The notes under the pieces were generated by a model. That model was not told where the DNA came from, made no database searches, and worked only from the letters and a program-made list of their open reading frames with translations. Made by a program: the position numbers and the translations under genes. A DNA stretch of 64,000 nucleotides, taken from assembly GCA_021851895.1 (NCBI GenBank), contig JAJZQJ010000002.1, positions 5,046-69,045 of the forward strand. Direction: 5' to 3'. Each line of letters begins with the position of its first letter. Position 1 is the first letter of the stretch. The stretch is from a bacterium. GTDB lineage: Bacteria > Patescibacteriota > Minisyncoccia > Phycocordibacterales > UBA6899. Positions 9,047-30,169 of the stretch are shown here, piece after piece.

Positions 9047-9049
9047 AAT

Positions 9050-9079
9050 AAAAACATGCACCATGGGTGCATGTTTTTA
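9050..9079. terminator. bidirectional intrinsic terminator between MFS (+) and dgkA (-)
   Basis: AAAAACATGCACC-ATGG-GTGCATGTTTTT, a perfect hairpin flanked by A- and T-runs. Confidence 0.65.
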
Positions 9080-9466
9080 TTTGATGATATGAGGAACGAA
9101 TATGATGAGGCCTACGGCAAGTGCGATGATCGCAGTGATGAGTACTGCCCCTGCAGCAACGTCTTTGGTGTCCCTGGCATAGGGGTGTTCGTCAGGGGAG
9201 GTGAGGTCGATATCGATCTCTATTGCGGTATTGAAAGCCTCTGCGGCGATGACCATGCCGGAAGTCATGATGAGGAGTATCCATTCGATCTTCGAGATCT
9301 TGAAATACCACGCGAGGCAAAGCGCGAGCACAAAAGCAATGAGATGGATCCAGGCATTGTGTGTGCTTTTAATGAAGACCACAATGCCTCTCCCTGCATG
9401 AGTGAAGCTCTTTGCGCGCCTAACGATAGAGAAACGCTTTTTTTCTGAGAGAAGTCTTTCGTGCAT
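9077..9466 (-). CDS. dgkA: diacylglycerol kinase / undecaprenol kinase (DgkA family)
   Basis: About 129 aa with 3 TM helices. Motifs RAKSFTHAGRGI and EAFNTAIE are characteristic of prokaryotic DgkA. The start is set at ATG 9466, which lies 6 nt downstream of TGGTATAAT (leaderless pattern). The track ORF extends to 9532. Confidence 0.7.
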   Translation of the reverse strand: MHERLLSEKKRFSIVRRAKSFTHAGRGIVVFIKSTHNAWIHLIAFVLALCLAWYFKISKIEWILLIMTSGMVIAAEAFNTAIEIDIDLTSPDEHPYARDTKDVAAGAVLITAIIALAVGLIIFVPHIIK

Positions 9467-16706: not shown

Positions 16707-17036
16707 TCCGGTGTAGCTCAGCGGTAGAGCAGTACGCTGTGGCGTTAAACGCAGCCCATTTCAGTAATGAAATGGTGAACAACGAGGTGAATTGCTGGAA
16801 ACCCTAACGAGAAAGACGAGGGCGATCAGCAGCCAAGCTTTGCGAGGAATCGCACTGAAGGTTCAGAGACTATCCGAAAGGAGTACTGAATATGCAAATA
16901 TTTGGGAAGCGCCTCGCACCCCACTCTTATAAAGCCGCAAGGCTTAACGAAGAAGGGTGATGATATAGTCCTCCCACTACGAAAGTAGTGAACATGAGTA
17001 ACGTATTGGTCGCAGGTTCGAATCCTGCCGCCGGAG
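16707..17036 (+). tRNA. tRNA-Asn(GUU) split by a group I intron; exon 1 16707-16740, exon 2 16999-17036
   Basis: Acceptor stem TCCGGTG/CGCCGGA (one G-U pair); D arm GCTC-AGCGGTA-GAGC; anticodon stem GTACG/CGTAT. The spliced anticodon loop is CTGT|TAA, giving anticodon GTT. T arm GCAGG-TTCGAAT-CCTGC, discriminator G73. Confidence 0.7.
16741..16998 (+). ncRNA. group I self-splicing intron (IC3-like, no ORF) inserted between anticodon positions 35/36
   Basis: Conserved R element GTTCAGAGACTA (16861-16872) and S element GATATAGTCC (16961-16970) form P7. P-like AATTGCTGGAAA and Q-like GATCAGCAGCC are present. P1: exon GCUGU pairs with IGS GCAGC, with a terminal U.G. P10: intron CGUUA pairs with 3' exon UAACG. 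The intron ends in G. Confidence 0.7.
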
Positions 17037-17656: not shown

Positions 17657-18118
17657 ATGTCATTTCCACTTCTCGACAGCATCGGTTTATTTCTCATGCT
17701 CTCAGGTTTCATCATCGGGCTCGGTGCAGTGACGGTCATCGACATCCATGGCTTTCTTGGTCGCACATCCTCATATTGGACTGAGGCGACCACGCGAACG
17801 CATAAAGTTACGAAGCCCATGATATGGGCCGGCATCTTTCTCTCTATCGTCGGTGGCGTCATATTCTATCGCAATCAGCCGTTCGCGGGGATTCCTGCGG
17901 CGCATGCGCTCATCGTCGTCGCGCTCCTCTTTAATGGATATTTCCTGTCCTGCAAAGTGAGTCCATTTCTCTTAGCTCGTGAGAGCGAAGGGAAGTCGGG
18001 GGAATTACTCCCGAGTGCATGGCAGCATAAGATCATGGTGAGCCTCATCGTGTCTGACATCGGCTGGTGGGGAGGACTCGTTCTCCTCGTTGTGTACCTC
18101 ACGAGTCGTTTATCATAA
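17657..18118 (+). CDS. hypothetical membrane protein (4 TM)
   Basis: 153 aa with four hydrophobic helices. No motif recognized. Confidence 0.4.
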   Translation: MSFPLLDSIGLFLMLSGFIIGLGAVTVIDIHGFLGRTSSYWTEATTRTHKVTKPMIWAGIFLSIVGGVIFYRNQPFAGIPAAHALIVVALLFNGYFLSCKVSPFLLARESEGKSGELLPSAWQHKIMVSLIVSDIGWWGGLVLLVVYLTSRLS

Positions 18119-18212
18119 ATGGGTGCCAGCGCGTAGGCACAAGTGCTTCGTGTATTGCGCTCCTCTTGTCCGTCGCTCTTTCTGTTCCGCTGCGGGAGTA
18201 TTTATGTGTAAT

Positions 18213-18242
18213 GAAAAACCGGGCGCAAATTGCGCGCCCGGA
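18213..18242 (-). terminator. intrinsic terminator for the GC-rich membrane-protein gene
   Basis: CCGGGCGC-AAATT-GCGCGCCCGG preceded by A5 (a T-run on the minus strand). Confidence 0.65.
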
Positions 18243-18257
18243 GTTTATTCTAATGTG

Positions 18258-20135
18258 CTATTTCTTCTGCTCACGGAGCAGCTGGAGCATCTTCTGCTTC
18301 TCGGCGTCCGTGAGGTTTTCCATCTGACTCGTCGCTTCACGAGCGTCCTTGATGACCGCGTCGGCCTCCGTGGAGACTTTGTGCTGGGCATCGAAGGACT
18401 CTTGGACCTTCGTCTTCGCGAGGGTGAGACCCTGGCACTTGATCGAGTTCAGTGCGATGACCGACTCGTCGTTCTCGAGGAACGATACGGTCACGATGTC
18501 GCCGACGTGGAGCACAGGCGCGACGCGCACGGCTTCATCGGTTCCGCGGGTGGCGAACAGGCGATCGTTCACGCCCTCAAGCGTGAAGTAGAAGGTCTTG
18601 TTCCCGCCGATGACGGTGTCGCCGGTGCGCGTGATGCGCACGGGACCGAGGGTCTTCTTCGCGAGCGCCTTGCCACTCGCCGCGACGGCGTTGCCGTCGC
18701 TCGCGAGCTTCTGGCGGTACGACTCGAGCGCGGTCGTGAGATCACTCTCGATGACGAGCGTATTCACGTTCTCCATAGAGACGAGCGCGACCTTCTGGAA
18801 GAAGGACTGCTCGTTGCTCACGATAGGGATGACCCAGGTGGCCTTGCCGAAGATGTTGTATGGCGTCGGGTGCGTGGGGTGCCAGGTCGTCGCATTCGCG
18901 CCGAGCTGACTGCTCACGGCCTTCATCGCACCGTCTTCGGTCGTGCCACGCATCGGATAGTACTCGGCGCCAGCGATACCCTTGCGGGAGTCGATCAGCA
19001 TGAGTCCGATGAGGGAATCATCCTTCGCATTACTGCTCGTGATGCCGACGCTCCAGTAGAGCTTGTCGCCGAGCTTCACGAGCCACAGGTCGCCCGCAGG
19101 CTTCACGCGGTCATGGTCGTCCCAATTGATGAAACCATGGACGAGGTTGCCCCAGTCGACGATCTGTTCCTTCGCTTGCGCCATGGGGCGGACGCGATCG
19201 ATCCACGAGGGAATCGTGCCGTCCTGCTTGTACTCGCAAGAACCGGTTTCGGGATCAGCGATGATGACGCCGACGGTCTGTTCGCCCCAGAAGCCGATGG
19301 TGGGAGTCATGACGCCGTACGTGTAGTACGGATGCCAGTTCTCGTCCACCTCGAAGGTGACGTCACTTCGGTTCGCCCAGGGAATGTCCTTGTAGACCTT
19401 GCGGTCCAGGTTGTCCCCGAAGACCGCGTTCGGTGTGTACCGAATGGCGAACTTCTTGCCGAGGGCATCCTCGGTGACGAGGGTCGCCTCACGGTTCGGG
19501 TCCTGCGCCGACACCCTGATGTAGCCGGGGATGATGTTGTCGTTGAGACTCGCGAAGTCCGTTGCGTAGTCGAGGGGGAAGATCCACCAGAGTTCGCCGC
19601 GGACCTCTTGGACGGCTCCGTGTTCGAAATCGACATCGAACAGCGACCCGAGGGATTTCCCGTCGGCATTCTGTCCGAGCGCTTTCTTCGCGATGGTGTG
19701 CGCCGTTGCCGCGGAGACCAAGCGGATGTGCTTGGTGTCGGCGAGGGGCACGTTTTCGTTGAAGCGCTGCTTCATCGAGACGTTCCCGATCACGTTGCGG
19801 TACGCTTCCGCATTGAACATCGGACTTGTGCCGATGGCCATGCCGAAGAGGCCGACGAGGATGAGGACGGGGACGGCAATCCCCGCGTGGGGATGGAAGT
19901 CGAAGTATTCGTCTTTTTCGAAGCTGAAGACGAGGCCGAGCACCGCGCCGGTGAGGACGAGGAGCCAGGACTCCGCGAAGCGGAACCCGACCGTGGGGAG
20001 GGCGAAGTACCCGCCGCAGAGGACGAGCAGGAAGGAGAGGCTGCCAGCGGTGATGTACCGCCACGGCGTCTTGATCTTCGCGAGGCCGATGGTGACGATC
20101 GCTGCGATCGCGGCCAGGATGGCGAGGGTGAGCAT
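18258..20135 (-). CDS. large membrane protein: N-terminal TM helices + about 520-aa extracytoplasmic domain (strongly GC-rich gene)
   Basis: 625 aa with hydrophobic N-terminal helices, then a soluble domain with balanced composition and a charged coiled-coil tail. The opposite-strand 695-aa ORF is R/D/G-rich, typical of an antisense artefact. Confidence 0.55.
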   Translation of the reverse strand: MLTLAILAAIAAIVTIGLAKIKTPWRYITAGSLSFLLVLCGGYFALPTVGFRFAESWLLVLTGAVLGLVFSFEKDEYFDFHPHAGIAVPVLILVGLFGMAIGTSPMFNAEAYRNVIGNVSMKQRFNENVPLADTKHIRLVSAATAHTIAKKALGQNADGKSLGSLFDVDFEHGAVQEVRGELWWIFPLDYATDFASLNDNIIPGYIRVSAQDPNREATLVTEDALGKKFAIRYTPNAVFGDNLDRKVYKDIPWANRSDVTFEVDENWHPYYTYGVMTPTIGFWGEQTVGVIIADPETGSCEYKQDGTIPSWIDRVRPMAQAKEQIVDWGNLVHGFINWDDHDRVKPAGDLWLVKLGDKLYWSVGITSSNAKDDSLIGLMLIDSRKGIAGAEYYPMRGTTEDGAMKAVSSQLGANATTWHPTHPTPYNIFGKATWVIPIVSNEQSFFQKVALVSMENVNTLVIESDLTTALESYRQKLASDGNAVAASGKALAKKTLGPVRITRTGDTVIGGNKTFYFTLEGVNDRLFATRGTDEAVRVAPVLHVGDIVTVSFLENDESVIALNSIKCQGLTLAKTKVQESFDAQHKVSTEADAVIKDAREATSQMENLTDAEKQKMLQLLREQKK

Positions 20136-20380
20136 GTATGCTCCTGTGTTGTGCCGGATATCGATCCGGTGTGTTGAAGGGAAAGAGCTTCGGCTGTCCG
20201 AAACTGGGAGATATTATACAATATTTTTATAGATTTGTAAATAGTATCGATGTGAGGGTTTTTCTCGCTTAAAATATTCCCCGGAACTTGCGAAAAGACA
20301 TCCTGATCTGACACGGAAGGGTCCTATCGGAGTTTTCGCATGTCCTGTGCGGAAAACTGAGAAATTTAGAGCTGAATTTA

Positions 20381-20413
20381 TTCACAATACTATATAAAAT
20401 GATATTATTGTGA
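20381..20413 (+). promoter_or_regulatory. inverted repeat TTCACAATA-N15-TATTGTGAA overlapping the radC promoter/start
   Basis: 9-bp perfect arms at 20381-20389 and 20405-20413. The right arm ends 2 nt before ATG 20416, and the AT-rich spacer is -10-like. Confidence 0.5.
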
Positions 20414-20415
20414 AC

Positions 20416-21093
20416 ATGAAACTAAAGGAATTGCATCGTGTCGAGCTTCCACGAGAGAAGTTGGTGAAATATGGCCCCAAGCGTCTCCAATCTGAGGAGT
20501 TGTTTGCAATAATTCTTGGCTCTGGTATTAAAGGGGTCAATGTTCTTACGCTTGCACGTACTGTACTCAAGCACATAGAGAAGAACAAAAATGAGACGAG
20601 CTTAGAAAGTCTCCTGAAGATTAAAGGGTTAGGGACGACTAAGGCGTTGCAGATTATTTCAATATTAGAAATATCTCGTAGGCTACAAGAAAAAGAGAAA
20701 GTAGAAATACTTTCCGCAAAAGATGTTTGGCAGCAGTGCGCAGATTTCCGTGGATCCAAGAAAGAGCACTTCGCCGCCTTCTATCTCGATACACAAAACC
20801 GCCTCATTGAAAGGCAGATCATTTCCGTTGGTACGCTCGATTCTTCTCTCGTCCATCCCCGTGAAGTCTTCGAGCCAGCACTCCGACTTTCTGCTGCATC
20901 GGTCATCGTCGCACATAATCATCCATCTGGTGATCTTGTGCCTTCGGGCGAAGACTTAAGGTTAACGAAACGCCTTAAAGGGGCGGGGGAGTTAATAGGC
21001 ATTAACGTCCTGGATCACATTATCTTGTCTGGCTCAGAACACGGAAGCATAGCTGAGTCAATTGACGATGTACTTAGTGAGAGTATGCTGTAG
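20416..21093 (+). CDS. radC: RadC-like JAB/MPN domain protein (UPF0758)
   Basis: N-terminal HhH-like region plus a JAMM motif (SVIVAHNHPSGDLVPSGED). Confidence 0.8.
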   Translation: MKLKELHRVELPREKLVKYGPKRLQSEELFAIILGSGIKGVNVLTLARTVLKHIEKNKNETSLESLLKIKGLGTTKALQIISILEISRRLQEKEKVEILSAKDVWQQCADFRGSKKEHFAAFYLDTQNRLIERQIISVGTLDSSLVHPREVFEPALRLSAASVIVAHNHPSGDLVPSGEDLRLTKRLKGAGELIGINVLDHIILSGSEHGSIAESIDDVLSESML

Positions 21094-21095
21094 TA

Positions 21096-21686
21096 ATGAA
21101 GCATGGCTGCGCTAAATTAGAGGAAGTCGCGGAAATCATTACAGGTTACTCCTTCCGAAAGAGCATAGAGCCTGATCCCAATGGTCAGATTTTTGTGGTG
21201 CAGGCAAAAGATATCGTAAATGGTGAAATAATTCAGTCTACCGAAAAGCTCACACGCATTCTTGAGGAGCCAAACCATCCAGCATATCTTCAGCGTGATG
21301 ATCTCTTATTGCTATCAAAAGTCTACCCTGGAGCGCAGTTTCGTACGACAATATATCAAGGTTTATCAGGGAAGGTTTTAGCAAGTTCTTCGATTCATGT
21401 GATCCGACTCAAGAATGATTCGGTGCTCCCAGAATACTTATTCATGCTCTTTTCTTCTGGTTTTACGCAGAAGTGGTTGCAAGAAAATTCAAGCGGTGTG
21501 AATACTCCGACGATGCCGCGCGCCACTCTTGGCACACTCACTATCCCAATCATTAGCATTGAGCAACAAAAAGCATATATTTCGCTGTCAAAAGAAATGA
21601 AAAACATGCAGCGTTTGCTCCAAGAGAAAGCTGACCTTATTGCTATCGTACAAGAACAGACACTTGTAAGCTTGATCACCTCGTAA
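21096..21686 (+). CDS. hsdS: type I R-M specificity subunit, half-size (single target-recognition domain)
   Basis: 196 aa. N-terminal KLEEVAEIITG, a TRD, then a conserved coiled-coil region (IPIISIEQQKAYISL...). The start overlaps the radC stop (TAATG). Confidence 0.7.
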   Translation: MKHGCAKLEEVAEIITGYSFRKSIEPDPNGQIFVVQAKDIVNGEIIQSTEKLTRILEEPNHPAYLQRDDLLLLSKVYPGAQFRTTIYQGLSGKVLASSSIHVIRLKNDSVLPEYLFMLFSSGFTQKWLQENSSGVNTPTMPRATLGTLTIPIISIEQQKAYISLSKEMKNMQRLLQEKADLIAIVQEQTLVSLITS

Positions 21687-21706
21687 AGATATAAAACAAA
21701 TTACGT

Positions 21707-22546
21707 ATGGCACAAACAATTTTTGAACAAATCAAGAAGGTAAATGAGTTCGGCGGAGAATATTGGCAGGCGCGTGAGCTCGCAAAGGTTCTTGAATATG
21801 CTGACTTTGGGAATTTTGAAAATGTCATTAAAAAGGCAATGGACGCCTGTGAGGCAAGTGGGCAGGAGGTTGCGGACCATTTCGGTGCTCTCACCGAGAT
21901 GGTCGAAATTGGGTCAGGAGCAAAGCGAGAAATGTCAAGTTATGCACTTTCACGCTATGCCTGTTATCTCATAATCCAGGGCGCAGATACGACGAAGATT
22001 ATTATCGCGAAAGCGCATACATATTTTGCCATACAGACAAGAAGGCAAGAAGTAGCCGACCTCCTTGTCGAAGACAATAAGCGTGTCTTCCTGCGTGAGG
22101 AGATGAAAAAGCATAATAAGAATCTGGTCAGTGCGGCAAAGGACGCAGGTGTGACCAATTATGCGAATTTCCAGGATGCAGGATATATGGGACTTTACGG
22201 TGGTATGCGCCAAAAAGACATTCTCGCGCGCAAGCGTCTCTCCGTGAAAGAGGGCATCCTCGATCACATGGGAAGCGAGGAGCTCGCTGCGAATCTTTTC
22301 CGCGCCACACAAACAGAGGCGAAATTACGACGAGACAACATTAGGGGCCAAATTAAGGCAAATCAAACGCACTATGATGTTGGAGGTAGAGTGCGTGCAA
22401 CCATTAAAGAATTAGGAGGAACGATGCCAGAGAAGTTGCCAAATCCAGGTCCGATAAAGGATTCCGTTAAGCGCATTAAGAGCTCAGCGAAGGCCAAGAG
22501 CATTGTTGAGGGGAAAGTAGTTGCGAGGAAAAAGAAAAAAGCGTAA
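21707..22546 (+). CDS. dinD: DNA-damage-inducible protein D (DinD)-like
   Basis: 279 aa. The segments YWQARELAKVLEY.DF.NF..V...A..ACEASGQ...DHF and SRYACYLIIQ..D..K...A..YFAIQTRRQE match the DinD family as recalled from memory. Confidence 0.55.
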   Translation: MAQTIFEQIKKVNEFGGEYWQARELAKVLEYADFGNFENVIKKAMDACEASGQEVADHFGALTEMVEIGSGAKREMSSYALSRYACYLIIQGADTTKIIIAKAHTYFAIQTRRQEVADLLVEDNKRVFLREEMKKHNKNLVSAAKDAGVTNYANFQDAGYMGLYGGMRQKDILARKRLSVKEGILDHMGSEELAANLFRATQTEAKLRRDNIRGQIKANQTHYDVGGRVRATIKELGGTMPEKLPNPGPIKDSVKRIKSSAKAKSIVEGKVVARKKKKA

Positions 22547-22568: not shown

Positions 22569-24083
22569 ATGTCTACAAAAACATTCAATCAAGAGGAGCT
22601 CAATAAAGTACTTTGGGCAGCGGCTGATTCCTCTCGAGGTAAGGTTGACGCAAGTATCTATAAGGATTATGTGCTCACGATGCTCTTCTTCAAGTACATG
22701 AGTGATCTGCATAAGAAGACTTATGCAGAGTACCTTAAGCGTTTCGACGGAGATATTGATCGCGTTGAGGAGAAAATGCGTCTCGACCGCTTTGTGCTCC
22801 CCGAGACAGCAACTTTTGAAGCAGTATATGCACAGATAGAGAAGGACAACATCGGCGAAATCATCAATATCGCGCTTAAAGAGGTGGAGGCTGAGAACAG
22901 GGGGAAGCTTGATAAGGTCTTTGCCGTAGACTTCAATTCCGAAAACACCCTCGGTAAGCTCGATGAGCGTAATCGTATGCTGCGTAATTTGCTCAAAGAT
23001 TTCGCAAAGGTGGACTTCAGTGAGGCTGATGAAGACATTGTGGGAAATGCATACATGTATATGATTGAGCGCTTTGGCTCAGCGGCAGGGAAGAAAGCAG
23101 GAGAGTTCTTTACCCCCCGCTCTATCGCTTCGCTCGTCGCACGTCTTGCTGCACCAAAAGCAGGAGATCGTATCGCCGATATGGCCTGTGGGTCAGGCGG
23201 CCTCCTTTTGCTCGCAGGTGAGGAAGTCGAGAAGACTGGCTCAAAGAATTATGCTCTCTATGGTCAAGAGCTTACTGGTACTACCTACCAGCTCGCGCGT
23301 ATGAACATGTTCCTACATCAGAAGGATTCGGCACGCATTGAATGGGGCGATACGCTCAATAGTCCGCTCCTTGTGGAGAACGATCAGCTCATGCGCTTTG
23401 ACGTCTCTGTTGCAAATCCTCCCTTCTCGCTCAAGAAGTGGGGTGCAGAGAATGCAGAGAATGATAAGTACAATCGTTTCTGGCGCGGAATACCACCGAA
23501 GGACAAAGGAGACTATGCCTTCGTAACCCATATGGTTGAAACCACGAAGCCAAAGTCGGGTCGTGGTGTTATCGTCGTGCCCCATGGAGTGCTCTTCCGT
23601 GGTGGAGCGGAAGGGAGAATTCGTGAAGCATTGCTCAAGGAAAATATCATCGATGCAGTCATTGGGCTTCCTGCTGGGCTTTTCCAAACGACAGGTATCC
23701 CCGTCGCAATCCTTATATTCGATCGCTCTCGAGAAGTGGGGGGTGCGAACGAATCTCGCAAAGATGTGCTCTTCATTGAAGCCTCGAAAGAATTCAAGGC
23801 AGGCAAAGCGCAAAGTACCCTCACTGATGAGAATGCGGCAAAGATTATTGATACGTACAAGGGGAGAAAAGAAATCGAAAAGTTCTCTCGTAAAGTCTCG
23901 CTTAAAGAGATCGAGGAGGAAAATGACTTTAATCTAAATATCACTCGATATGTCGATACCTTTGAAGAGGAGGATGAAATTGATATTTCTGCAAATCTCA
24001 AAGAGTTATCTAAGGTAAACGCTGAATTGAAGGAGGTCGAGAAGAAGATGGAGGAGTATTTAAAGATGCTTAATATCGCATAA
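22569..24083 (+). CDS. hsdM: type I R-M N6-adenine DNA methyltransferase subunit
   Basis: 504 aa. N-terminal HsdM helical domain, AdoMet motif I (DMACGSGGLLL) and motif IV NPPF (VANPPFS). Confidence 0.9.
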   Translation: MSTKTFNQEELNKVLWAAADSSRGKVDASIYKDYVLTMLFFKYMSDLHKKTYAEYLKRFDGDIDRVEEKMRLDRFVLPETATFEAVYAQIEKDNIGEIINIALKEVEAENRGKLDKVFAVDFNSENTLGKLDERNRMLRNLLKDFAKVDFSEADEDIVGNAYMYMIERFGSAAGKKAGEFFTPRSIASLVARLAAPKAGDRIADMACGSGGLLLLAGEEVEKTGSKNYALYGQELTGTTYQLARMNMFLHQKDSARIEWGDTLNSPLLVENDQLMRFDVSVANPPFSLKKWGAENAENDKYNRFWRGIPPKDKGDYAFVTHMVETTKPKSGRGVIVVPHGVLFRGGAEGRIREALLKENIIDAVIGLPAGLFQTTGIPVAILIFDRSREVGGANESRKDVLFIEASKEFKAGKAQSTLTDENAAKIIDTYKGRKEIEKFSRKVSLKEIEEENDFNLNITRYVDTFEEEDEIDISANLKELSKVNAELKEVEKKMEEYLKMLNIA

Positions 24084-24086
24084 AAC

Positions 24087-25100
24087 ATGGCAAAGGTAAA
24101 ACAGGCAACAAAAACTTGGGAAGAGCTCGAGAAATTAAGACTCGAATTCGAACAGAGGCTCTTTCCGCAGGTTAAAGCAAAAATTGATGAAATAGAAGCC
24201 TATAGAGATACTCTTCTCGATGACAATGAAAAGAAGTCATTAAGCACGACTATTTCTGAGTTGTCGGATAAAATCACCGAACTAGAGGAGTCCTTCAAAG
24301 AAAAATTCAGTGACATAGAAACTTTGCATGAGAGGATTTTTCACGGGGATGAGGAGAATGATGCGTTGTCTGATCAGGTTGATGAGTTTGTAAATAAAGC
24401 AAAAGGAGAGCTTGCTGGCTTGAATACAAAACACGCTGATATTAATAGGTATCATGAAAAGGTATTTGGTGAGAAGGATGCTTCTGGAAAGTATTCAGGT
24501 GGGCTCGCGTCAGAGCTAGAAAAGTATGGAAAGAAGTATGAAGCCCTATTTGGCCAAATAGAAGGCTTATTGCCAGGTGCTACAAGTGCTGGTCTTGCTC
24601 AGGCATTTAGCGATAAGGTTGATGAATACAAGAAAGAGGCTTCAAAGTGGAAGTGGATTACTTTTGGCTCCTTGTGTATCGCAGTCGTTCTTAGTATCGT
24701 CTCATACTGGCTTGATCGTGGTCAGGTGCTCTCGTTTTCATTTGTCATGATCCGGCTTGCACAGAAATTGCCTTTTGTTTTGTTTGCAGTTTGGCTGGTT
24801 GTATATGCAAATAATCGACGTGCAGAAAATAAAAAACTCGAAGAGTCATATAAGCATAAAGAGGTAATCGCGAGATCTTTTGTGGGCTATAGGAAGCAAA
24901 TTGAGGATCTCGATCTCGACACTGAAGATAATAATTTACTTATTTCGCTCACGACAGGATTACTTGATGCCATCATGATCAATTCATCAGATTTCTTAAC
25001 AGCGACTGGCGAGAAGAGTCCGATTCATGAAATGCTTGATAAAGCTGCAGATACTGCGAGTGCCGCAGTATCTAGCCCTGTAATTTCTATAAAGAAATAA
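24087..25100 (+). CDS. coiled-coil / 2-TM protein of unknown function embedded between hsdM and hsdS (candidate membrane effector)
   Basis: 337 aa. About 190 aa of heptad-rich helical N-terminus, then two adjacent TM helices (WKWITFGSLCIAVVLSIVSYWL; LPFVLFAVWLVVYANN) and about 100 aa of C-terminus. ATG 3 nt after the hsdM stop and 3 nt before the hsdS start. Confidence 0.6.
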   Translation: MAKVKQATKTWEELEKLRLEFEQRLFPQVKAKIDEIEAYRDTLLDDNEKKSLSTTISELSDKITELEESFKEKFSDIETLHERIFHGDEENDALSDQVDEFVNKAKGELAGLNTKHADINRYHEKVFGEKDASGKYSGGLASELEKYGKKYEALFGQIEGLLPGATSAGLAQAFSDKVDEYKKEASKWKWITFGSLCIAVVLSIVSYWLDRGQVLSFSFVMIRLAQKLPFVLFAVWLVVYANNRRAENKKLEESYKHKEVIARSFVGYRKQIEDLDLDTEDNNLLISLTTGLLDAIMINSSDFLTATGEKSPIHEMLDKAADTASAAVSSPVISIKK

Positions 25101-25103
25101 TTC

Positions 25104-26246
25104 ATGGAACTAGCGAAACAAAAAATTCCGTCCACTTGGCAAAAACTTCGCCTCGGTGATTGTCTGACAATAAAGCATGGTAAATCACAAAAAGAAATTG
25201 AAGTAGTCGATGGTAAATATCCCATCCTTGCTTCAGGTGGAGTTATAGGGAGAACTAATACTCCACTATATAGTAAGCCATCAGTATTAATCGGTAGAAA
25301 AGGGACGATTGATAAGCCTAGATACATGGATACTCCTTTTTGGACGGTAGATACGCTATTTTACAGTCAGGTAAAGGACAACTCTGTACCCAAGTATTTG
25401 TTTTATGTATTCAATTTCATTGACTGGTATGAATACAATGAGGCTTCGGGAGTCCCAAGTCTTTCGTCGAGCACTATTTCCTCAATAGAAGTTCTACTTC
25501 CTCCTCTCCCTGAACAAAACCGCATCGTTTCGGTTCTTGAAACCTGGGATAAGGCAATTGAAAAACTTTCTCGAAAGATTGAAATTAAGAAGGAAATCAA
25601 GAGGGGATTGATGCGGGGCTTACTGACTGGCAAGCTCAGGGTAACAGGTCGCGGTGGGAGTTGGGATGTCTATAAAATCGGTGACATAATTGTTGAAAGT
25701 CGAATTCCTTCCAAGAGTTTTGATGTTACTAAAAGGATTAGTGTGCGACTAAATATGAATGGCGTAGAGAGTAGGGAAGTGCGAGGTACTGAGGCTGAGG
25801 GCTCGACCATGTTTTTCGTTAGGAGCGCTGGTCAGTTTGTTTATGGAAAGCAAAATTTATATAAGGGAGCGATGGGGATTATTCCAGAACAGCTTAATGG
25901 TTATGAGAGCACTCAAGATATCCCCTCTTTTGATTTCAGGGAAGGATTTGATTCTAAGTGGTTCTTGTATTTCATGGGCAGAGAAAGTTTTTATTCGCAA
26001 CTTGAAGATATTGCAACTGGTTCAGGGTCCAAGCGAATTCATCCACGAGATTTATTTAAAATTAAGATTCGGGTACCTAAATATGACGAACAGTTAGCAA
26101 TTGCATCTGTGCTATCGGTTGCCGATTCGGAAATCCGCATACTTACCCAAAAACAGCAGTGTCTAGAGAGGCAGAAAAAGTTTCTCCTTAATAATCTTGT
26201 CACTGGAAAAATTCGTACTCCAGAAAACCTACAATATGCTAAATAA
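25104..26246 (+). CDS. hsdS: type I R-M specificity subunit (two TRDs)
   Basis: 380 aa. Two TRDs separated and followed by conserved regions (LLPPLPEQNRIVSVLE...; VPKYDEQLAIASVL...). Confidence 0.85.
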   Translation: MELAKQKIPSTWQKLRLGDCLTIKHGKSQKEIEVVDGKYPILASGGVIGRTNTPLYSKPSVLIGRKGTIDKPRYMDTPFWTVDTLFYSQVKDNSVPKYLFYVFNFIDWYEYNEASGVPSLSSSTISSIEVLLPPLPEQNRIVSVLETWDKAIEKLSRKIEIKKEIKRGLMRGLLTGKLRVTGRGGSWDVYKIGDIIVESRIPSKSFDVTKRISVRLNMNGVESREVRGTEAEGSTMFFVRSAGQFVYGKQNLYKGAMGIIPEQLNGYESTQDIPSFDFREGFDSKWFLYFMGRESFYSQLEDIATGSGSKRIHPRDLFKIKIRVPKYDEQLAIASVLSVADSEIRILTQKQQCLERQKKFLLNNLVTGKIRTPENLQYAK

Positions 26247-29200
26247 AGTCCATTTTGATGAAGCGCGTCAGGTACAGTTGCCCGCAGTAGAGTTGCTCAT
26301 AAGCCTTGGTTATGAGTATATTTCGGTGAGCGAGGCGCTGCGTGAGCGTGGGGGAGATGAACGTAACGTAATACTGCGTGATATCGCGCGTGCGAAGTTA
26401 ATGGAAATTAATAGCTATGAGCTCGATGGTGAAAAGATGCAATTCACTCCTCGCGATGTGAATGAGGCTATTGATGAGCTCGAAAACCTTCCATTTGAGG
26501 GACTTCAGAAGACCGCACAAAACATTTACCGCATGATCATGCCGACGAGTGGCGGGAAGACTGTCGAGGTGCGTAAGGGAGACTCGAAAAACTTTCGTTT
26601 CATCGATTTTGCGGAACCCCATAATAATGCTTTTCATGTGACGGTAGAATATACCGTCGTTGGTAAAGAAGAGATCCGCCCGGATATCGTTTGTTTTGTG
26701 AATGGTTTTCCTATTGCGGTTATCGAAAGCAAGAAGCATACGGTATCGGTGGAAGAAGCACTAGAGCAGATGGTGCGCAATCAAGGCGTCGAATATGCTC
26801 CAAAACTATATACCTTTGCACAGATACTTGTGGGCTCAAATGGTACTGATTTCCGCTATGGTACAACCGGCACTGGCGAGAAATTTTATGCAGTCTGGAA
26901 AGAAAAGCCTAGAGAGAAAGGAGAGGCGGATCTTGAGCGACTTGATGCGCGCGTAAAGGAATTAATTGCTCAGCCGATTGCCGTAGGTGTGTATCAAGAA
27001 TTGCTCAATGACTTGAGCCGAGGCCAATCACATCATGAGCAACTTTGCGATCGCCCTATTACTGCGCAAGATCGCAGTATCGTCGCACTCTTTACGCCAG
27101 AGCGCTTACTTGATCTCACAAAGCACTTTGTGATTTTCGATGCAATGGAGAAGAAGATTGCACGCTATCAGCAGTATTTTGCTATTGAGAAGATGCGTCG
27201 CCGTGTGATGGAGAAGGAGGCCGCACCTGAGGGCGGCGAGCGTCGCCGTGGCGGTATCGTCTGGCATACACAAGGGTCTGGAAAGTCGCTGACGATGGTG
27301 CTCTTCGTGAAGGCGCTTATAGAGGATGAGCATATTAAGAATCCTCGTGTCATTATTGTTACCGACCGCAGAGATCTTGATAGGCAAATCAAGGGAACGT
27401 TTGAGAATTGTGGACTCAAGAAGGACGTCGTCCAGGCAAAGACGGGACAGCACCTGCTTGATCTTATTCAAGAGAAGAATCTTGGAGTCATCACCACTCT
27501 CGTGCAAAAGTTTGAGAGCGTCGCGAAGAAGCGTGAAGATTTTGTTGACCCCGATGAGAACATCTTTGTGCTCATCGATGAGGCGCATCGTACCCACGGC
27601 GGTATGGCGAGCCTTGAGATGTCCCGCACAATACCGAATGCTTGCTATATTGCCTTTACGGGTACGCCACTCATGCGCGAGGAGAAGGAGAGCTGGAGGC
27701 GTTTTGGGGCATATATTGACAAATATACCATTGATGACGCCGTGCTCGATGGTAATGTGCTCCCACTGATCTATGAGGGACGCTTTGTGCCGCTTGTGCA
27801 GAATGCAAAGAAGATTGATGAGCTTGTTGATCGTGTAAAAGAGCGTGCAATACACAAATACCAGTCCAATGGTGAAGAAGATAAACGCGAAGAGGAGTCG
27901 GTAAATCGCGAAGCGTTGGTCAATAATCCACAGCGCCTCCGTGAAATAGTCCATGATATTGAATCGCATTATAAGATGGAGCTGCAGGGGACAGGACTTA
28001 AGGCGCAAGTTGTTGCTCCCAGCAAATTTGCGGCAGTAAAAATGCAACAAATGTTTCTCGAGAGCGGGTTGGTGAAGTCTGCGGTCGTTGTCTCAGATGA
28101 GTCGGGGATTGTTCATGAGGATGACTACCGAAGGCAGGAAGTTGTCGATTTCTTGGATAAGATAAAAGATACTCATTCGAGTATTGAAGAATATGAGAAA
28201 GAAGTGATTCGCGACTTCAAGGATAATGCAGATGGTGTCGAAGTGCTTATCGTTGTCCATAAGCTCCTCACGGGTTTTGATGCCCCAAGAAATACCGTGC
28301 TTTACCTCGCAAAGAGTTTGAGGGACCATGACTTACTTCAAGCAATTGCTCGTGTGAACAGGCTTTGCGATAAGGGCAAGAAGCAGAAAACATCAGGGTA
28401 TATTATTGATTATTCCGAGAATGCACAACACCTCAAGAGTGCGATGCAGCTCTTTGGGAACTACGAGGAGGACGATGTGCACGGCACGCTTGTGGACGTG
28501 GGAGAGAAGATGCAGGAACTGGCACAAGCATATGCGGCCATACATGATATTTTTCGTGGCGTGCATGGGGCGAAGACGGTAGAACCGTTCATGGAGGTGC
28601 TCAAGGCAGAGGATACACGCGTGGAATTTAATGCCGCAGTAAATACATACACAAAGCTCTTCAGTGAATGTCTTGCGTTGAAGGATTTCAATGAGAACTT
28701 CAAAGATATTGATCTGTATAAGCGAGAGCTCAGAAAGTTCGTCGAATTAAGAAAGCTTTCGCGGTTCAGATACGGCGAGCGAACGGACTTTAATGAGTAC
28801 AAATTTGCGTTGATGCGTATCCTTGATCAGTATGTTGATACCGAAGGAGGCGTGGAGCGTCTTACTGAAAAGATTGATGTTCGCGATATTGCTCAGGTGC
28901 GTAAGGCTGTTGAAGAGATCGTAGATAGCAAGGAGAAGGCTGAGGCGATTGCGACACAGGTGAATAAGACTATTCACGACCGTGAGGCTGAGGATCCTGT
29001 CTACTATAAGTCACTCTCGGAACGAGTTGAGGAAATTATACGAGCGATGCGAGAGGGGAGAATGCAAGACCTCGTTGCCCTTGAAGGGCTCGAAGAATTG
29101 CTCATTGCCGCAAATGAGAAGAAGCAGGCCTCAGTACCAAGTCAGATTGAAGCTGAACATGGAGCAGATCTATTTTATCGAAATTTACTTCCACATTTTG

Positions 29201-29454
29201 AGCGTTTTCATCTTATCTCAGATCAAGAGGTGATGCTTTCATTGAGTGTCTTTAAGATTATTAAAGAATTTGCAATAGTCGATTTTGAGCATAACGTCGA
29301 TGTACAGCGCCGCATGCGTAGTGCGCTTGATGACTACTTGTATGATGGTTTCCCTTCCGAGTGGAATGTTTCGCTATCTTCGAGAGAAAGGGGAGACATA
29401 GTTGCCGCAATGGTTGAACTCGCAAAACACAATCATGAGCTCTTTAGTGCATAA
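26236..29454 (+). CDS. hsdR: type I R-M restriction subunit (helicase/endonuclease)
   Basis: About 1072 aa. N-terminal nuclease region, SF2 helicase motifs (GSGKSLTM Walker A; DEAH: LIDEAHRTHGG; motif VI QAIARVNR). The ATG at 26236 overlaps the hsdS stop. Confidence 0.9.
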   Translation: MLNKVHFDEARQVQLPAVELLISLGYEYISVSEALRERGGDERNVILRDIARAKLMEINSYELDGEKMQFTPRDVNEAIDELENLPFEGLQKTAQNIYRMIMPTSGGKTVEVRKGDSKNFRFIDFAEPHNNAFHVTVEYTVVGKEEIRPDIVCFVNGFPIAVIESKKHTVSVEEALEQMVRNQGVEYAPKLYTFAQILVGSNGTDFRYGTTGTGEKFYAVWKEKPREKGEADLERLDARVKELIAQPIAVGVYQELLNDLSRGQSHHEQLCDRPITAQDRSIVALFTPERLLDLTKHFVIFDAMEKKIARYQQYFAIEKMRRRVMEKEAAPEGGERRRGGIVWHTQGSGKSLTMVLFVKALIEDEHIKNPRVIIVTDRRDLDRQIKGTFENCGLKKDVVQAKTGQHLLDLIQEKNLGVITTLVQKFESVAKKREDFVDPDENIFVLIDEAHRTHGGMASLEMSRTIPNACYIAFTGTPLMREEKESWRRFGAYIDKYTIDDAVLDGNVLPLIYEGRFVPLVQNAKKIDELVDRVKERAIHKYQSNGEEDKREEESVNREALVNNPQRLREIVHDIESHYKMELQGTGLKAQVVAPSKFAAVKMQQMFLESGLVKSAVVVSDESGIVHEDDYRRQEVVDFLDKIKDTHSSIEEYEKEVIRDFKDNADGVEVLIVVHKLLTGFDAPRNTVLYLAKSLRDHDLLQAIARVNRLCDKGKKQKTSGYIIDYSENAQHLKSAMQLFGNYEEDDVHGTLVDVGEKMQELAQAYAAIHDIFRGVHGAKTVEPFMEVLKAEDTRVEFNAAVNTYTKLFSECLALKDFNENFKDIDLYKRELRKFVELRKLSRFRYGERTDFNEYKFALMRILDQYVDTEGGVERLTEKIDVRDIAQVRKAVEEIVDSKEKAEAIATQVNKTIHDREAEDPVYYKSLSERVEEIIRAMREGRMQDLVALEGLEELLIAANEKKQASVPSQIEAEHGADLFYRNLLPHFERFHLISDQEVMLSLSVFKIIKEFAIVDFEHNVDVQRRMRSALDDYLYDGFPSEWNVSLSSRERGDIVAAMVELAKHNHELFSA

Positions 29455-30169
29455 ACAAAACATACGACATAAAGGTGAAGTCTTTGAGTACCAAGTGTGG
29501 CGTTCTGGTCGTAAAACTCTCGCCCTCACGGTAACTCCTGCCATGGAGCTTATTGTGCGTTCTCCTTTTGAAAAGAGCCTAGAGGAGATTGAGAATTTTC
29601 TCATGCGTAAAATACAATGGGTTCGAAAGCAGCTCGCATTCTTCGGCACACAGGAGCCTGCTCAGGTTGAACGTCGATATATTTCCGGGGAAGCGCATTA
29701 TTATCTTGGGAGGCAGTATATGCTCGAAGTTGCTGAAAGTCATCGAGAATATGTAAGTGTTTCTCGTGAGCGTATTATGCTTTATCGTAGGTCCGAGAAT
29801 TCTCGTGATTTGATGGGAGCAAAGCAATTATTTCTGAAGTGGCAGAGTGAGATGGTTGCGAAACATCTTAATGAGCGATATCGTGCAATGTCACGACTCT
29901 TTGATTATAAGGACATACCAACTATGGAGATCAAAGCCATGGAAAAGCGTTGGGGGAGTTACCGTGTGAAGACAAAATCAATCGCGCTTAATGCAAAGCT
30001 GATCCATGCTCCACTCGATGCCATTGATTATGTTATCGTGCATGAACTTTGTCATCACGAGCATCATGATCATGGTAAGGAGTTTTATAAGCTTCTAAGT
30101 AGAAAGATGCCAAACTGGCAGGTTGAAAAGAAGAAACTTGAGCGATACGGCGCTCTTGTGTGCGGATGA
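29435..30169 (+). CDS. DUF45/YgjP-like zinc metallohydrolase (WLM/SprT-like), overlapping the hsdR 3' end
   Basis: HELCHHEHHDHGKEFY motif (HEXXH...H). This family is commonly encoded next to hsdR. The ATG at 29435 lies 20 nt inside hsdR. Confidence 0.7.
   Translation: MSSLVHKQNIRHKGEVFEYQVWRSGRKTLALTVTPAMELIVRSPFEKSLEEIENFLMRKIQWVRKQLAFFGTQEPAQVERRYISGEAHYYLGRQYMLEVAESHREYVSVSRERIMLYRRSENSRDLMGAKQLFLKWQSEMVAKHLNERYRAMSRLFDYKDIPTMEIKAMEKRWGSYRVKTKSIALNAKLIHAPLDAIDYVIVHELCHHEHHDHGKEFYKLLSRKMPNWQVEKKKLERYGALVCG

Follow-up and report, generated by a model that had tools for sequence, protein, structure and literature searches.

The window, that is the whole stretch of 64,000 nucleotides that was analysed, carries a cluster of co-oriented genes in which a gene encoding a protein of 337 aa, designated here as X, is placed between hsdM and hsdS. 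The genes of the cluster are the following:

20410-21093, + strand, RadC-like JAB-domain gene, first of the cluster (Pfam RadC 7.2e-40 and UPF0758_N)
21096-21686, + strand, half-size hsdS-like gene, 196 aa, one target-recognition domain (Pfam Methylase_S 1.9e-10)
21707-22546, + strand, gene with a Bro-N domain, 279 aa, the second accessory gene carried by the operon (Pfam Bro-N 6.8e-09)
22569-24083, + strand, hsdM, type I methyltransferase subunit (Pfam N6_Mtase 2.5e-97, HsdM_N 8.4e-19; catalytic NPPF at residue 283)
24087-25100, + strand, X, 337 aa, member of an unannotated family with helical bundle, 2-TM hairpin and conserved cytosolic helix (ORF and homologues)
25104-26246, + strand, hsdS, specificity subunit, two target-recognition domains (Pfam Methylase_S 2.5e-28, two stretches)
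26236-29454, + strand, hsdR, restriction/translocase subunit (Pfam HSDR_N 8e-37, SWI2_SNF2 4.2e-74, ResIII, T1R_D3-like)
29435-30169, + strand, YgjP-like metallopeptidase gene, last of the cluster (Pfam YgjP-like 5.8e-49)

The ORF listing gives the order hsdM-X-hsdS with X starting at an ATG and with gaps of 3 nt on both sides: the TAA of hsdM ends at 24083 and the ATG of X begins at 24087, and the TAA of X ends at 25100 and the ATG of hsdS begins at 25104. A preliminary description of this DNA had placed the 337-aa ORF 3 nt past hsdM and 3 nt before hsdS; its position agrees with these coordinates and stop and start positions, and the identity of both flanking genes with the Pfam matches listed above. 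The longest ORF of hsdR starts at 26197 and the coordinates given here follow the public gene call at 26236 (L061, 12150-15368, corresponding to 26236-29454 of the window); its product contains a Walker A motif (GSGKS) at 360, DEAH at 461 and a PD-ExK-like motif. No terminator-like site was found on the + strand between 23203 and 27521, from hsdM to mid-hsdR. With co-oriented HsdM, HsdS and HsdR genes and their catalytic motifs, the R-M system of the window is, as judged by sequence, a complete type I operon with an intact-looking hsdR. The order RadC, half-hsdS, hsdM is shared with locus L006, where the half-hsdS also lies upstream of hsdM, Bro-N homologues accompany relatives of X in L001, L011, L022, L025 and L057, and a YgjP-like gene occurs downstream of hsdR also in L001, L006 and L011. 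The GC content of X (0.403) and hsdS (0.402) differs from that of hsdM (0.469) and hsdR (0.47).

X is a genuine gene and a chance ORF is excluded, because it has 190 database homologues (the best with 48% identity) and its family includes 3339 representative clusters at E≤1e-3, of which 1728 are retained at E≤1e-10. No significant family match for X was found in Pfam, NCBIfam or PADLOC, and the family is large and so far unannotated, with no model in any of the three collections. It is concentrated in candidate-phyla-radiation bacteria and falls into length classes of 241, 295, 333 and 485 aa, among which the length of the N-terminal helical domain (160-300 aa in the family) differs. The parts of X are arranged along the gene as follows:

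24087-24566, + strand, residues 1-160, variable N-terminal helical domain, modelled by AlphaFold as four helices and a small beta-hairpin (128-137)
24567-24650, + strand, residues 161-188, pre-TM1 motif LLPGATSAGLAxxFxDKVxEY, conservation 0.74
24651-24713, + strand, residues 189-209, predicted TM helix 1, hydropathy peak, continuous with helix 163-209
24735-24815, + strand, residues 217-243, predicted TM helix 2 region, hydropathy peak, P229 nearly invariant and W236 invariant
24816-24908, + strand, residues 244-274, family signature, predicted juxtamembrane cytosolic helix RRAENKKLEESYKHKEVIARSFVGYRKQIED, most conserved block
24909-25097, + strand, residues 275-337, helical C-terminal domain, conserved to about residue 315 with a variable tail (AlphaFold helices and conservation)

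Two AlphaFold models (pLDDT 75 and 87) depict X as an all-helical protein with helices at residues 2-44, 52-86, 94-127, 139-160, 163-209, 217-274, 279-297 and 312-328; in the better model the TM2 region is formed by helices 217-226 and 228-274, and a short helix (300-303) appears in the C-terminal domain. Kyte-Doolittle hydropathy peaks at residues 191-209 (2.05) and 217-235 (1.63), and among the first 60 homologues nearly all have two hydrophobic segments at the matching place, a few showing a single peak above the threshold. X is predicted to be a resident inner-membrane protein, with both termini in the cytoplasm and a short outside loop between the TM helices. The two adjacent hydrophobic helices and the helical C-terminus of the preliminary description are both recovered in this analysis, the former by the hydropathy peaks and their recurrence in homologues and the latter in the AlphaFold helices. 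The roughly 190 aa of heptad-rich helices that it proposed are indeed helical, but the N-terminal 160 aa are modelled as an antiparallel bundle with the beta-hairpin at 128-137 and not as one long coiled coil. No ATPase, P-loop, nuclease, DNA-binding or enzyme-interaction domain was found in X with Pfam, NCBIfam or PADLOC, and the earlier remark that no enzymatic motif is visible is consistent with the lack of a family match; yet a polar cluster, Y255-x-H257-K258-E259, is invariant or nearly so among 114 diverse members.

Conservation is distributed unevenly along the protein, the mean identity to relatives being 29% in the N-terminal domain versus 46% in the C-terminal part, and it peaks at the cytosolic flanks of the TM hairpin. 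The family signature consists of a near-invariant cytosolic helix after TM2, NRRAExKKLEESYKHKEVMARSFVGYK (shorter consensus KLEExYxHKExxAxSxxGYK), together with the PGATSAGLA motif before TM1. Among 114 sequences, the pre-TM1 segment has two invariant positions (L161 and L170) and three (G164, A165 and T166) with conservation of 90% or more; in the signature helix L251, Y255 and K258 never vary, and H257, E259, A262 and S264 likewise reach at least 90%. TM1 is poorly conserved (0.45 over residues 181-200 and 0.35 over 201-220), the signature block reaches 0.91 over residues 241-260, and the mean is 0.74 for residues 244-315 (0.56-0.70 in the 20-residue blocks from 261 to 320) and 0.24 for 316-337. 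The signature motif is kept even in plasmid homologues only 21-25% identical.

The genomic neighbourhoods were counted over distinct informative loci of the clade of 300-350 aa relatives, which includes the protein of the window and is composed mostly of Patescibacteria. In 31 of about 37 such loci (84%) X lies inside or beside R-M genes, which belong to four R-M types:

Type I, 22 loci: window, L001, L006, L007, L011, L017-L021, L031, L033, L034, L040, L041, L043, L047, L051-L053, L057, L059 (in L031 and L034 only the downstream side of X is visible)
Type III, 4 loci: L013, L039, L046, L048
Type IIG (Eco57I-like), 2 loci: L023, L025
Type II (BsaWI, MutH-like, EcoRI-MTase), 3 loci: L014, L049, L055

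The gaps between X and the flanking R-M genes are mostly of -35 to +28 nt, and at the non-R-M locus L003 they measure 355 and 235 nt. In the subclade of the window (window, L001, L006, L011, L033) the order is almost always hsdM-X-hsdS, with gaps of 1-14 nt or overlaps. The R-M types are interspersed on the tree of X proteins, and distant homologues that bear the signature motif are found alone on conjugative plasmids, beside Tn7-like tniB/tniQ, near transposases and in genomic islands. Across about 45 loci the neighbours include R-M genes, Bro-N, AlbA_2/HATPase_c_4 and YgjP genes and transposases, and no nucleotide cyclase, SMODS, SLOG or reverse-transcriptase partner was found near X.

Genes lying within BREX, Hma and type I R-M systems often turn out to be defence systems themselves. 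Payne et al. (bioRxiv 10.1101/2024.01.29.577857) described such 'guilt-by-embedding' as a mark by which accessory defence genes can be recognised, and the recurrent embedding of X in R-M loci matches it. TgvAB, from the VPI-2 island of V. cholerae, is embedded in an R-M operon and is a validated defence system (PMC11411939). Like X, TgvAB and the HEC and PDC candidates interrupt a type I R-M operon and likely provide complementary protection; unlike X, they are GmrSD-like, ABC-ATPase, HEPN or RelE-type enzymes, and the PADLOC HEC and PDC models gave no significant match to X.

The relationship of X with known membrane effectors was explored by profile and structure searches. X had been proposed to match SLATT-like 2TM pore-forming effectors, and the conserved 2-TM hairpin with its cytosolic helices agrees with that architecture, a generic and not diagnostic resemblance. 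The Pfam search against SLATT profiles suggested at the time did not return one among the best 25 of 26 matches of X (hmmscan, Pfam-A, E≤10), SLATT was not recurrent in 43 full-length relatives (E≤1) or in 20 diverse C-terminal modules (E≤10), and SMODS, SLOG and RT neighbours are absent from the loci described above, so that homology to SLATT was rejected. SLATT-type modules are mobile, exchangeable accessory or effector parts of defence systems (PMC9226505). The SLATT effectors of CBASS, retron/UG-RT and RADAR resemble X in combining TM helices (two or three) with cytosolic ones and in lacking an enzyme domain, but their partners are nucleotide cyclases or reverse transcriptases whereas those of X are R-M enzymes, and X has in addition a 160-300 aa N-terminal helical domain and an invariant motif of its own. 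PycTM (PADLOC PDLC02365), the sole 2-TM effector to be matched, aligned with full-length X at E 0.24 and its C-terminal module with E 0.0043, over the TM region only and in one of 20 diverse members; a significant match across the family was not found in these 20. The remaining PADLOC matches (JetC, LmuB, HamB) were coiled-coil noise, and known defence proteins were discarded as relatives.

Searches for solved relatives by sequence returned coiled-coil artefacts (designed coiled coils, interferon-gamma, syntaxin, chemoreceptors), and no solved structure was found to resemble either AlphaFold model. With the first model, the top Foldseek matches were ClyA-type toxins, non-significant (E 0.14 or worse, TM-scores of about 0.16), a ranking that was not reproduced with the better model, and no sequence-profile support for ClyA-type toxins was found in the family. 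The ClyA family (ClyA, Hbl/Nhe, AhlB, XaxAB/YaxAB), to which DinC of the Dionysus defence system has been likened as ClyA/Hbl-like (bioRxiv 10.1101/2025.09.30.679545), resembles X in being all-helical, of about 330 aa and with long helices that have a hydrophobic hairpin at their centre; these proteins are secreted toxins, unlike X with its predicted residence in the membrane. A relationship with housekeeping membrane proteins, for instance chemoreceptors, considered beforehand as the finding that would speak against an effector, did not emerge, and a chemoreceptor fragment was rejected: MCPsignal (PF00015) is absent among the best 25 of 26 matches of X at E≤10 and is not recurrent in 43 members, the PDB chemoreceptor matches (E 1e-4) are limited to the N-terminal coiled-coil-like region and stand beside designed coiled coils and syntaxins, and Tsr was matched by Foldseek with E 0.4.

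The explanation that we favour, tentatively and at a little short of an even chance, is that X may be an accessory gene for defence, mobile and embedded in R-M operons, whose product works at the membrane; in function it would resemble PrrC, RonA or the SLATT effectors while belonging to none of these groups. X is credible as a candidate anti-phage accessory and is not recognisable as a SLATT protein. Within the clade, the gene has the behaviour of a mobile accessory cassette, repeatedly inserted into type I, II, IIG and III R-M operons, as suggested by the interspersion of R-M types on the X tree and by the GC content of X and hsdS (0.40) against that of hsdM and hsdR (0.47), and it would be co-transcribed and often translationally coupled with the host R-M genes. 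Because of this embedding, its function would most likely be that of an accessory second-line anti-phage or anti-MGE protein at the membrane. The architecture suggests that the action could consist in disturbing membrane integrity or potential, or in blocking a membrane step of infection. Given the asymmetric conservation, the juxtamembrane cytosolic module and the TM hairpin would form the effector or oligomerisation core, with sensing or regulation falling to the N-terminal helical domain, which evolves fast. X would gain from co-expression and co-mobility with R-M and would not be an obligatory R-M subunit, since distant signature-bearing homologues stand alone on mobile elements, which points to self-sufficiency.

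Several observations weigh against this explanation. No homology ties the X family to any validated defence protein, and neither model gave a fold match that would back pore formation. Since TM1 is poorly conserved, the hairpin could be a mere anchor. Some distant relatives reside in ordinary-looking neighbourhoods, such as L062, and the family as a whole need therefore not be defensive; R-M operons may also be simply a permissive place for any cargo in the small genomes of Patescibacteria.

A more specific version, which we consider rather unlikely as a whole, is that X represents a new class of R-M companion able to join any R-M type, a membrane sensor/effector with a particular prevalence among the CRISPR-poor Patescibacteria. 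Failed or inhibited restriction would lead it to collapse the membrane, or else it would couple restriction to the place on the membrane where DNA enters, and the invariant Y-x-H-K-E helix and PGATSAGLA would constitute its signalling or gating module, of a kind not described before.

Coupling to a type I complex was also weighed. The anticodon nucleases PrrC and RloC are linked to type I R-M loci, PrrC with EcoprrI (PMC12707154). As in the case of X, each is an accessory gene inside an otherwise complete R-M operon and is co-expressed with it, but they are soluble proteins combining an ABC-ATPase and an RNase, whereas X is a 2-TM protein that has neither a P-loop nor a nuclease domain. In work of Davidov & Kaufmann from 2008, PrrC and RloC reportedly occur in type III R-M loci too; X, unlike them, is present also in type II and IIG operons. 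RonA (Ronin, Silas et al.), a protein of 61 aa with one TM helix, is neutralised by HsdMS, and its homologues invariably accompany hsdS/hsdM at loci without hsdR, a decoy R-M (bioRxiv 10.1101/2023.04.06.535777). Among membrane effectors linked to hsd genes, RonA is the nearest precedent: it has a membrane helix, its gene is in tight linkage with hsdM/hsdS, and disruption of the inner membrane is the proposed way in which it kills. By description, X differs in its 337 aa, two TM helices, large conserved cytosolic parts, an intact-looking hsdR and an occurrence beyond type I. By analogy with both systems, X could be held inactive by HsdM2S1 and released for membrane damage once a phage-encoded anti-restriction protein (for example Ocr or ArdA) inhibits R-M. 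The tiny gaps of hsdM-X-hsdS in the subclade of the window, which favour equimolar synthesis of X, M and S, argue for such a guardian, as do the precedents of RonA (bioRxiv 10.1101/2023.04.06.535777) and PrrC (PMC12707154). However, close relatives of X are found in type II, IIG and III operons that lack HsdM and HsdS, others stand alone on mobile elements, and, in contrast to Ronin, the window has a complete R-M in which hsdR looks intact. A mimicry of helices from HsdS or HsdM was rejected as well (hhalign probability ≤0.2%), X having no profile similarity to them. The PrrC-like coupling first proposed is hence sustained as regards the embedding in an R-M operon and weakened as regards a physical link with type I enzymes, and this guardian role is considered improbable.

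Of similarly low probability is the view that X is a passenger not concerned with defence, such as an envelope or stress membrane protein or an addiction-type toxin stabilising its carrier, for which R-M operons are tolerated insertion sites in reduced genomes. The flavobacterial L062 and Shewanella L063 relatives, whose neighbours are housekeeping genes or transposases and include no defence genes, the splitting of X into two ORFs in L024 and L058, and weak compositional matches to DUF948, YtxH and PspB-type membrane and stress proteins are consistent with it, as is the presence of several unrelated cargo genes in the same operon slots (Bro-N, DUF3644, AlbA_2/HATPase_c_4 and YgjP genes). Tolerance alone can hardly explain that R-M linkage reaches 84%, extends over many lineages and four R-M types and goes along with translational coupling, and other cargo of these slots (GmrSD-like, AlbA_2/HATPase_c_4, NYN) is itself defence-associated.

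A slim chance is given to X acting as a non-lethal membrane scaffold or sensor, which would hold or gather restriction enzymes, or a signal, where DNA enters at the membrane, or block injection or uptake in the manner of superinfection exclusion, strengthening first-line restriction with no killing of the cell. Such a role would suit an association independent of R-M type and the location of the conserved parts in the cytosol and next to the membrane, with a poorly conserved TM1, as expected for an anchor with an interaction surface; defence at the membrane while a genome is being injected has a precedent (PMC13190303). The standalone distant relatives speak against dependence on a partner enzyme, and no DNA-binding or enzyme-interaction domain was detected in X by the searches mentioned above. 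That X is a divergent member of a known pore-forming family, be it SLATT, a ClyA/Hbl/AhlB-type alpha-pore-forming toxin or a CorA-like channel, is very improbable despite its SLATT-like 2-TM hairpin with cytosolic helices and the PycTM match over its TM region, the CorA-like channel having been rejected for its lack of a GMN motif and for sporadic and weak CorA matches.

New immune mechanisms have demonstrably come from accessory genes embedded in R-M loci (PrrC, RonA, TgvAB, HEC systems). The X family, with thousands of 50%-identity clusters, tracks R-M regardless of type and has its main concentration in bacteria of the candidate phyla radiation, a group whose repertoire of defences is little known. 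Should X prove to be an effector of defence, the immune catalogue would gain a new module acting at the membrane, together with a handle on restriction back-up in ultra-small bacteria; should it rather assist restriction at the membrane, it would inform the question of where R-M enzymes encounter incoming DNA and how. The analysis provides as resources the signature motif, targets for mutation (Y255, H257, K258, E259, W236 and P229) and natural operon variants.

A phage origin of X was rejected, as no match was found in IMG/VR or in 50,697 phage records with three family members as queries. Two PHROG families of unknown function, phrog_34659 and phrog_30912, match the X family.

The gene between hsdM and hsdS, hereafter X, was recovered in the ORF listing exactly where the preliminary description had placed it, with the 3-nt gaps reported on either side (the hsdM stop ends at 24083, the hsdS ATG lies at 25104), and the identity of both neighbors was borne out by Pfam. 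The operon and the genes around it are:

20410-22546, same strand as hsdM and directly upstream: RadC-like JAB gene, half-size hsdS (one target-recognition domain) and Bro-N gene (Pfam)
5' neighbor of X: hsdM (N6_Mtase 2.5e-97 and HsdM_N)
24087-25100, + strand: X, ATG start, 337 aa
3' neighbor of X: hsdS (Methylase_S 2.5e-28, two target-recognition domains)
downstream: hsdR (HSDR_N, SWI2_SNF2, ResIII)
downstream of the restriction-modification (R-M) genes: YgjP-like metallopeptidase gene (Pfam)

Judged by its motifs (NPPF in HsdM; GSGKS, DEAH and a PD-ExK-like motif in HsdR) the R-M system looks functional, and no terminator-like site was found on the + strand from 23203 to 27521. The GC content of X and hsdS is 0.40 (24000-26250) against 0.47 for hsdM and hsdR and 0.49 for the whole window, which fits a horizontally exchanged variable cassette and suggests that the two genes, the variable portion of this operon, were exchanged jointly. 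The order RadC, half-hsdS, hsdM is common to the window and L006, whose operon is the nearest syntenic one (HsdM 70% identical); its hsdM-hsdS slot (8017-9449) contains X along with two further genes, one of 147 aa and one for a DUF3644 protein, and thus takes several cargo genes. Bro-N proteins of ~280 aa accompany X relatives in the loci L001, L011, L022, L025 and L057, in L022 directly 3' of X with no R-M genes seen there, and the Bro-N gene may be a second cargo that recurs with R-M systems.

X is a real, conserved inner-membrane hairpin protein in which the cytosolic juxtamembrane module is conserved and the N-domain variable. The two hydrophobic helices noticed earlier were confirmed as Kyte-Doolittle peaks at residues 191-209 and 217-235, and nearly all of the first 60 homologues examined carry the pair at the equivalent position. 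Two AlphaFold models (pLDDT 75 from 43 input sequences; pLDDT 87 and pTM 0.52 from 114) are all helix except for a small hairpin at 128-137. Since basic residues flank the hydrophobic pair (KKEASKWK ahead of TM1, NRRAENKK past TM2), both termini would be cytoplasmic according to the positive-inside rule. Conservation is strongly lopsided, mean identity to relatives being 29% over the N-terminal 160 aa vs 46% over the C-terminal part. TM1 is poorly conserved; a near-invariant block, NRRAExKKLEESYKHKEVMARSFVGYK, follows TM2, in which L251, Y255 and K258 are invariant in 114 diverse sequences and conservation is at least 90% at H257, E259, A262 and S264. Further conserved elements are LLPGATSAGLA, immediately ahead of TM1, and W236 and P229 within TM2.

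The strongest evidence on X is its genomic context. Loci carrying relatives were collected from single-protein look-ups, a species-level genome collection, metagenomes and plasmids, applying genetic code 25 where coding density called for it, and neighbors were annotated with precomputed Pfam matches, our own Pfam scans and iterated HMMs built from the HsdM, HsdS and HsdR of the window. In the clade of 300-350 aa proteins that includes the window's own, X lies inside or directly beside R-M genes in 31 of ~37 informative loci after removal of duplicates, a raw tally and a lower bound, as it rests in part on the HMMs built from the window's proteins and divergent R-M genes may be missed. Twenty-two of these loci are type I (mostly M-X-S, also M-S-X-R and M-X-cargo-S), four are type III (Mod-X-Res in L039 and L013, X-Res in L048, Res-126aa-X in L046) and two are type IIG (L023 and L025, with X 3' of an Eco57I-like enzyme). 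The three type II loci are:

L014: MTase-BsaWI-X-MTase
L049: MutH/Sau3AI-like
L055: EcoRI-MTase with GmrSD_N/HNH

Distances between X and the flanking R-M genes are typically -35 to +28 nt, with several overlaps, compared with 355 and 235 nt in the non-R-M locus L003. R-M types are interspersed in a neighbor-joining tree of X proteins (a type II/I group, for instance, is the sister of the type III pair L048/L039). Most hosts belong to the Patescibacteria (among them Saccharibacteria, Gracilibacteria, Peribacteria and Moranbacteria), and some are Proteobacteria. X shows repeated, R-M-type-independent operonic insertion into R-M systems. A Schlafen-like protein of ~500-550 aa is encoded immediately 3' of X in the type III locus L013 (7839-9320; HATPase_c_4 only) and the type IIG locus L023 (4890-6551; AlbA_2 and HATPase_c_4), and this gene is another recurrent R-M-embedded cargo adjoining X.

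By the principle of 'guilt-by-embedding' (Payne et al., bioRxiv 10.1101/2024.01.29.577857), X would most likely be an accessory defence gene, as are other genes associated with R-M systems such as TgvAB, whose genes interrupt a type I operon (PMC11411939), and the R-M guardian PrrC (PMC12707154). Since the protein combines a conserved TM hairpin with no enzyme domain, it would most likely act at the membrane, by permeabilising or depolarising it or by disturbing a step of infection that takes place there, and the variable N-domain may be the sensing or regulatory part. This reading is the one we favor, tentatively. The model proposed at first, in which X is freed from HsdMS upon anti-restriction attack as described for PrrC or RonA (bioRxiv 10.1101/2023.04.06.535777), fits the M-X-S position and the tight coupling in the window's own subclade, which is almost uniformly hsdM-X-hsdS in the tree; however, close relatives occur in operons without HsdM or HsdS, and the model appears unlikely. 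A non-defence passenger is put at a similarly low probability, and a non-lethal scaffold or a role in DNA entry slightly lower.

Membership of a known pore-former family, of which X would be a divergent member, is very improbable. A relationship to SLATT effectors found no support: no SLATT profile appears among the best 25 of 26 Pfam matches of X at E<=10, nor among the families recurrently matched by 43 relatives or by 20 diverse C-terminal modules from which the coiled-coil region had been left off. PycTM was the only 2-TM effector matched, through the TM segment only (E 0.24 with the full protein, 0.0043 with the module) and in 1 of the 20 members. Sequence searches of solved structures with X returned coiled-coil artefacts only. 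Foldseek placed AhlB, an alpha-pore-forming toxin of the ClyA family, in the top five for the first model (full length, E 0.14-0.47, TM-score 0.16); the better model gave mixed top matches, with YaxA, XaxAB and ClyA at ranks 4, 9 and 16 (all E>0.29). The ClyA-like appearance (a central hydrophobic helical hairpin in a helical protein of ~335 aa) is thus a lead from predicted structures rather than a result. For the defence system Dionysus, an effector resembling alpha-pore-forming toxins has been put forward (DinC; bioRxiv 10.1101/2025.09.30.679545), so a pore-forming reading would not be exotic. Mimicry of HsdS or HsdM helices found no support in similarity, a CorA-like channel was rejected as the GMN motif is absent, and the housekeeping alternative named earlier, a chemoreceptor fragment, found no backing: MCPsignal is absent from the same 25 of 26 matches of X and from the families recurrently matched by the 43 relatives.

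X had no significant match in Pfam, NCBIfam or PADLOC, its listed matches being coiled-coil regions of SMC, Rad50, JetC and LmuB-type proteins. A word-seeded search gave 190 homologues, and an exhaustive profile search of representative clusters gave 3339 at E<=1e-3, 1728 at E<=1e-10 and 453 at E<=1e-30, with no meaningful Pfam annotation or name among the family proteins listed. The size classes (~241, 295, 333, 400-418 and 485 aa) differ in the N-terminal helical region. The signature is kept as KLEQEYSHKEALAKSYERYK in plasmid proteins 21-25% identical (hhalign probability 98.6-98.9% against the family alignment). Conjugative plasmids of Campylobacter encode such proteins, as do plasmids from Acinetobacter, E. 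coli, Klebsiella and Citrobacter, with the E. coli record that was inspected typed as IncA. None of the distant size classes is linked to R-M genes:

485-aa form (L008): IS-rich island
418-aa form (L030): 3' of tniB/tniQ in a Tn7-like element
397-aa form (L029): conjugative plasmid
241-aa form (L063): amid transposases
295-aa form (L062): unremarkable flavobacterial neighborhood

As relatives stand alone on mobile elements, X is not an obligate R-M subunit. No homologue was detectable in phage genomes (IMG/VR; 50,697 phage records with three family members as queries). Two PHROG families of unknown function were matched (phrog_34659 by 21 of 43 members; phrog_30912 at E 4.7e-7 over residues 28-288 of X), and these probably derive from prophage regions.

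Some loci within the clade depart from the R-M linkage. The L003 group lies on a mobile element of Saccharibacteria that also encodes a resolvase and a Rep protein; a 44-aa ORF (L003, 5593-5727) stops 3 nt ahead of X, with a DUF2726 gene upstream, and could be a partner or regulator outside R-M operons. In L027, X adjoins ribonucleotide reductase. A Rickettsiales MAG (L024, 6836-7174 and 7301-7750) and a related metagenome contig (L058, 635-973 and 1022-1549) carry X as two ORFs, broken at the same point, and in both a conserved 427-aa protein without Pfam match is encoded 3' of it; pseudogenization, a frameshift or a two-part form of the protein could each account for the split. The gammaproteobacterial chromosome OZ244039.1 encodes three divergent paralogues on the same strand within ~12.7 kb, adjoining a 1989-aa GLUG-motif protein, with no R-M genes detected at these loci:

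L026, 6818-7690: X paralogue
L028, 2347-3126: X paralogue
L028, 6296-7495: X paralogue

In function X is likened to R-M-embedded effectors (PrrC/RloC, RonA) and to mobile 2-TM accessory effectors such as SLATT proteins, which have 2-3 TM segments, are predicted to form pores and are highly exchangeable modules (PMC9226505); it falls outside the PrrC/RloC, RonA and SLATT families by the tests applied (sequence profiles; for RonA, its description). Accessory effectors encoded within immune operons are already known as a kind, and X is a solid, testable candidate rather than a surprise. Neither the family and its signature motif nor its preponderance in Patescibacteria and its indifference to R-M type is described in the literature and profile libraries searched.

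Elsewhere in the window, two features were recorded:

16707-17035, + strand: group I intron inside a tRNA gene
18000-20200: GC-rich stretch (0.59-0.62 against the window mean of 0.49)

The intron matches Rfam Intron_gpI at 16736-16991 (74.5 bits, E 4.6e-17); ARAGORN found no tRNA in the unaltered window and one once the intron was removed in silico, with exons TCCGGTGTAGCTCAGCGGTAGAGCAG... and ...GGTCGCAGGTTCGAATCCTGCCGCCGGAGCA and an anticodon call that varied with the splice boundaries chosen. The GC-rich stretch carries a 695-aa ORF (18090-20177, + strand) without Pfam match, almost all of which is covered by an antisense ORF (18258-20135), and may represent a foreign or compositionally unusual gene.
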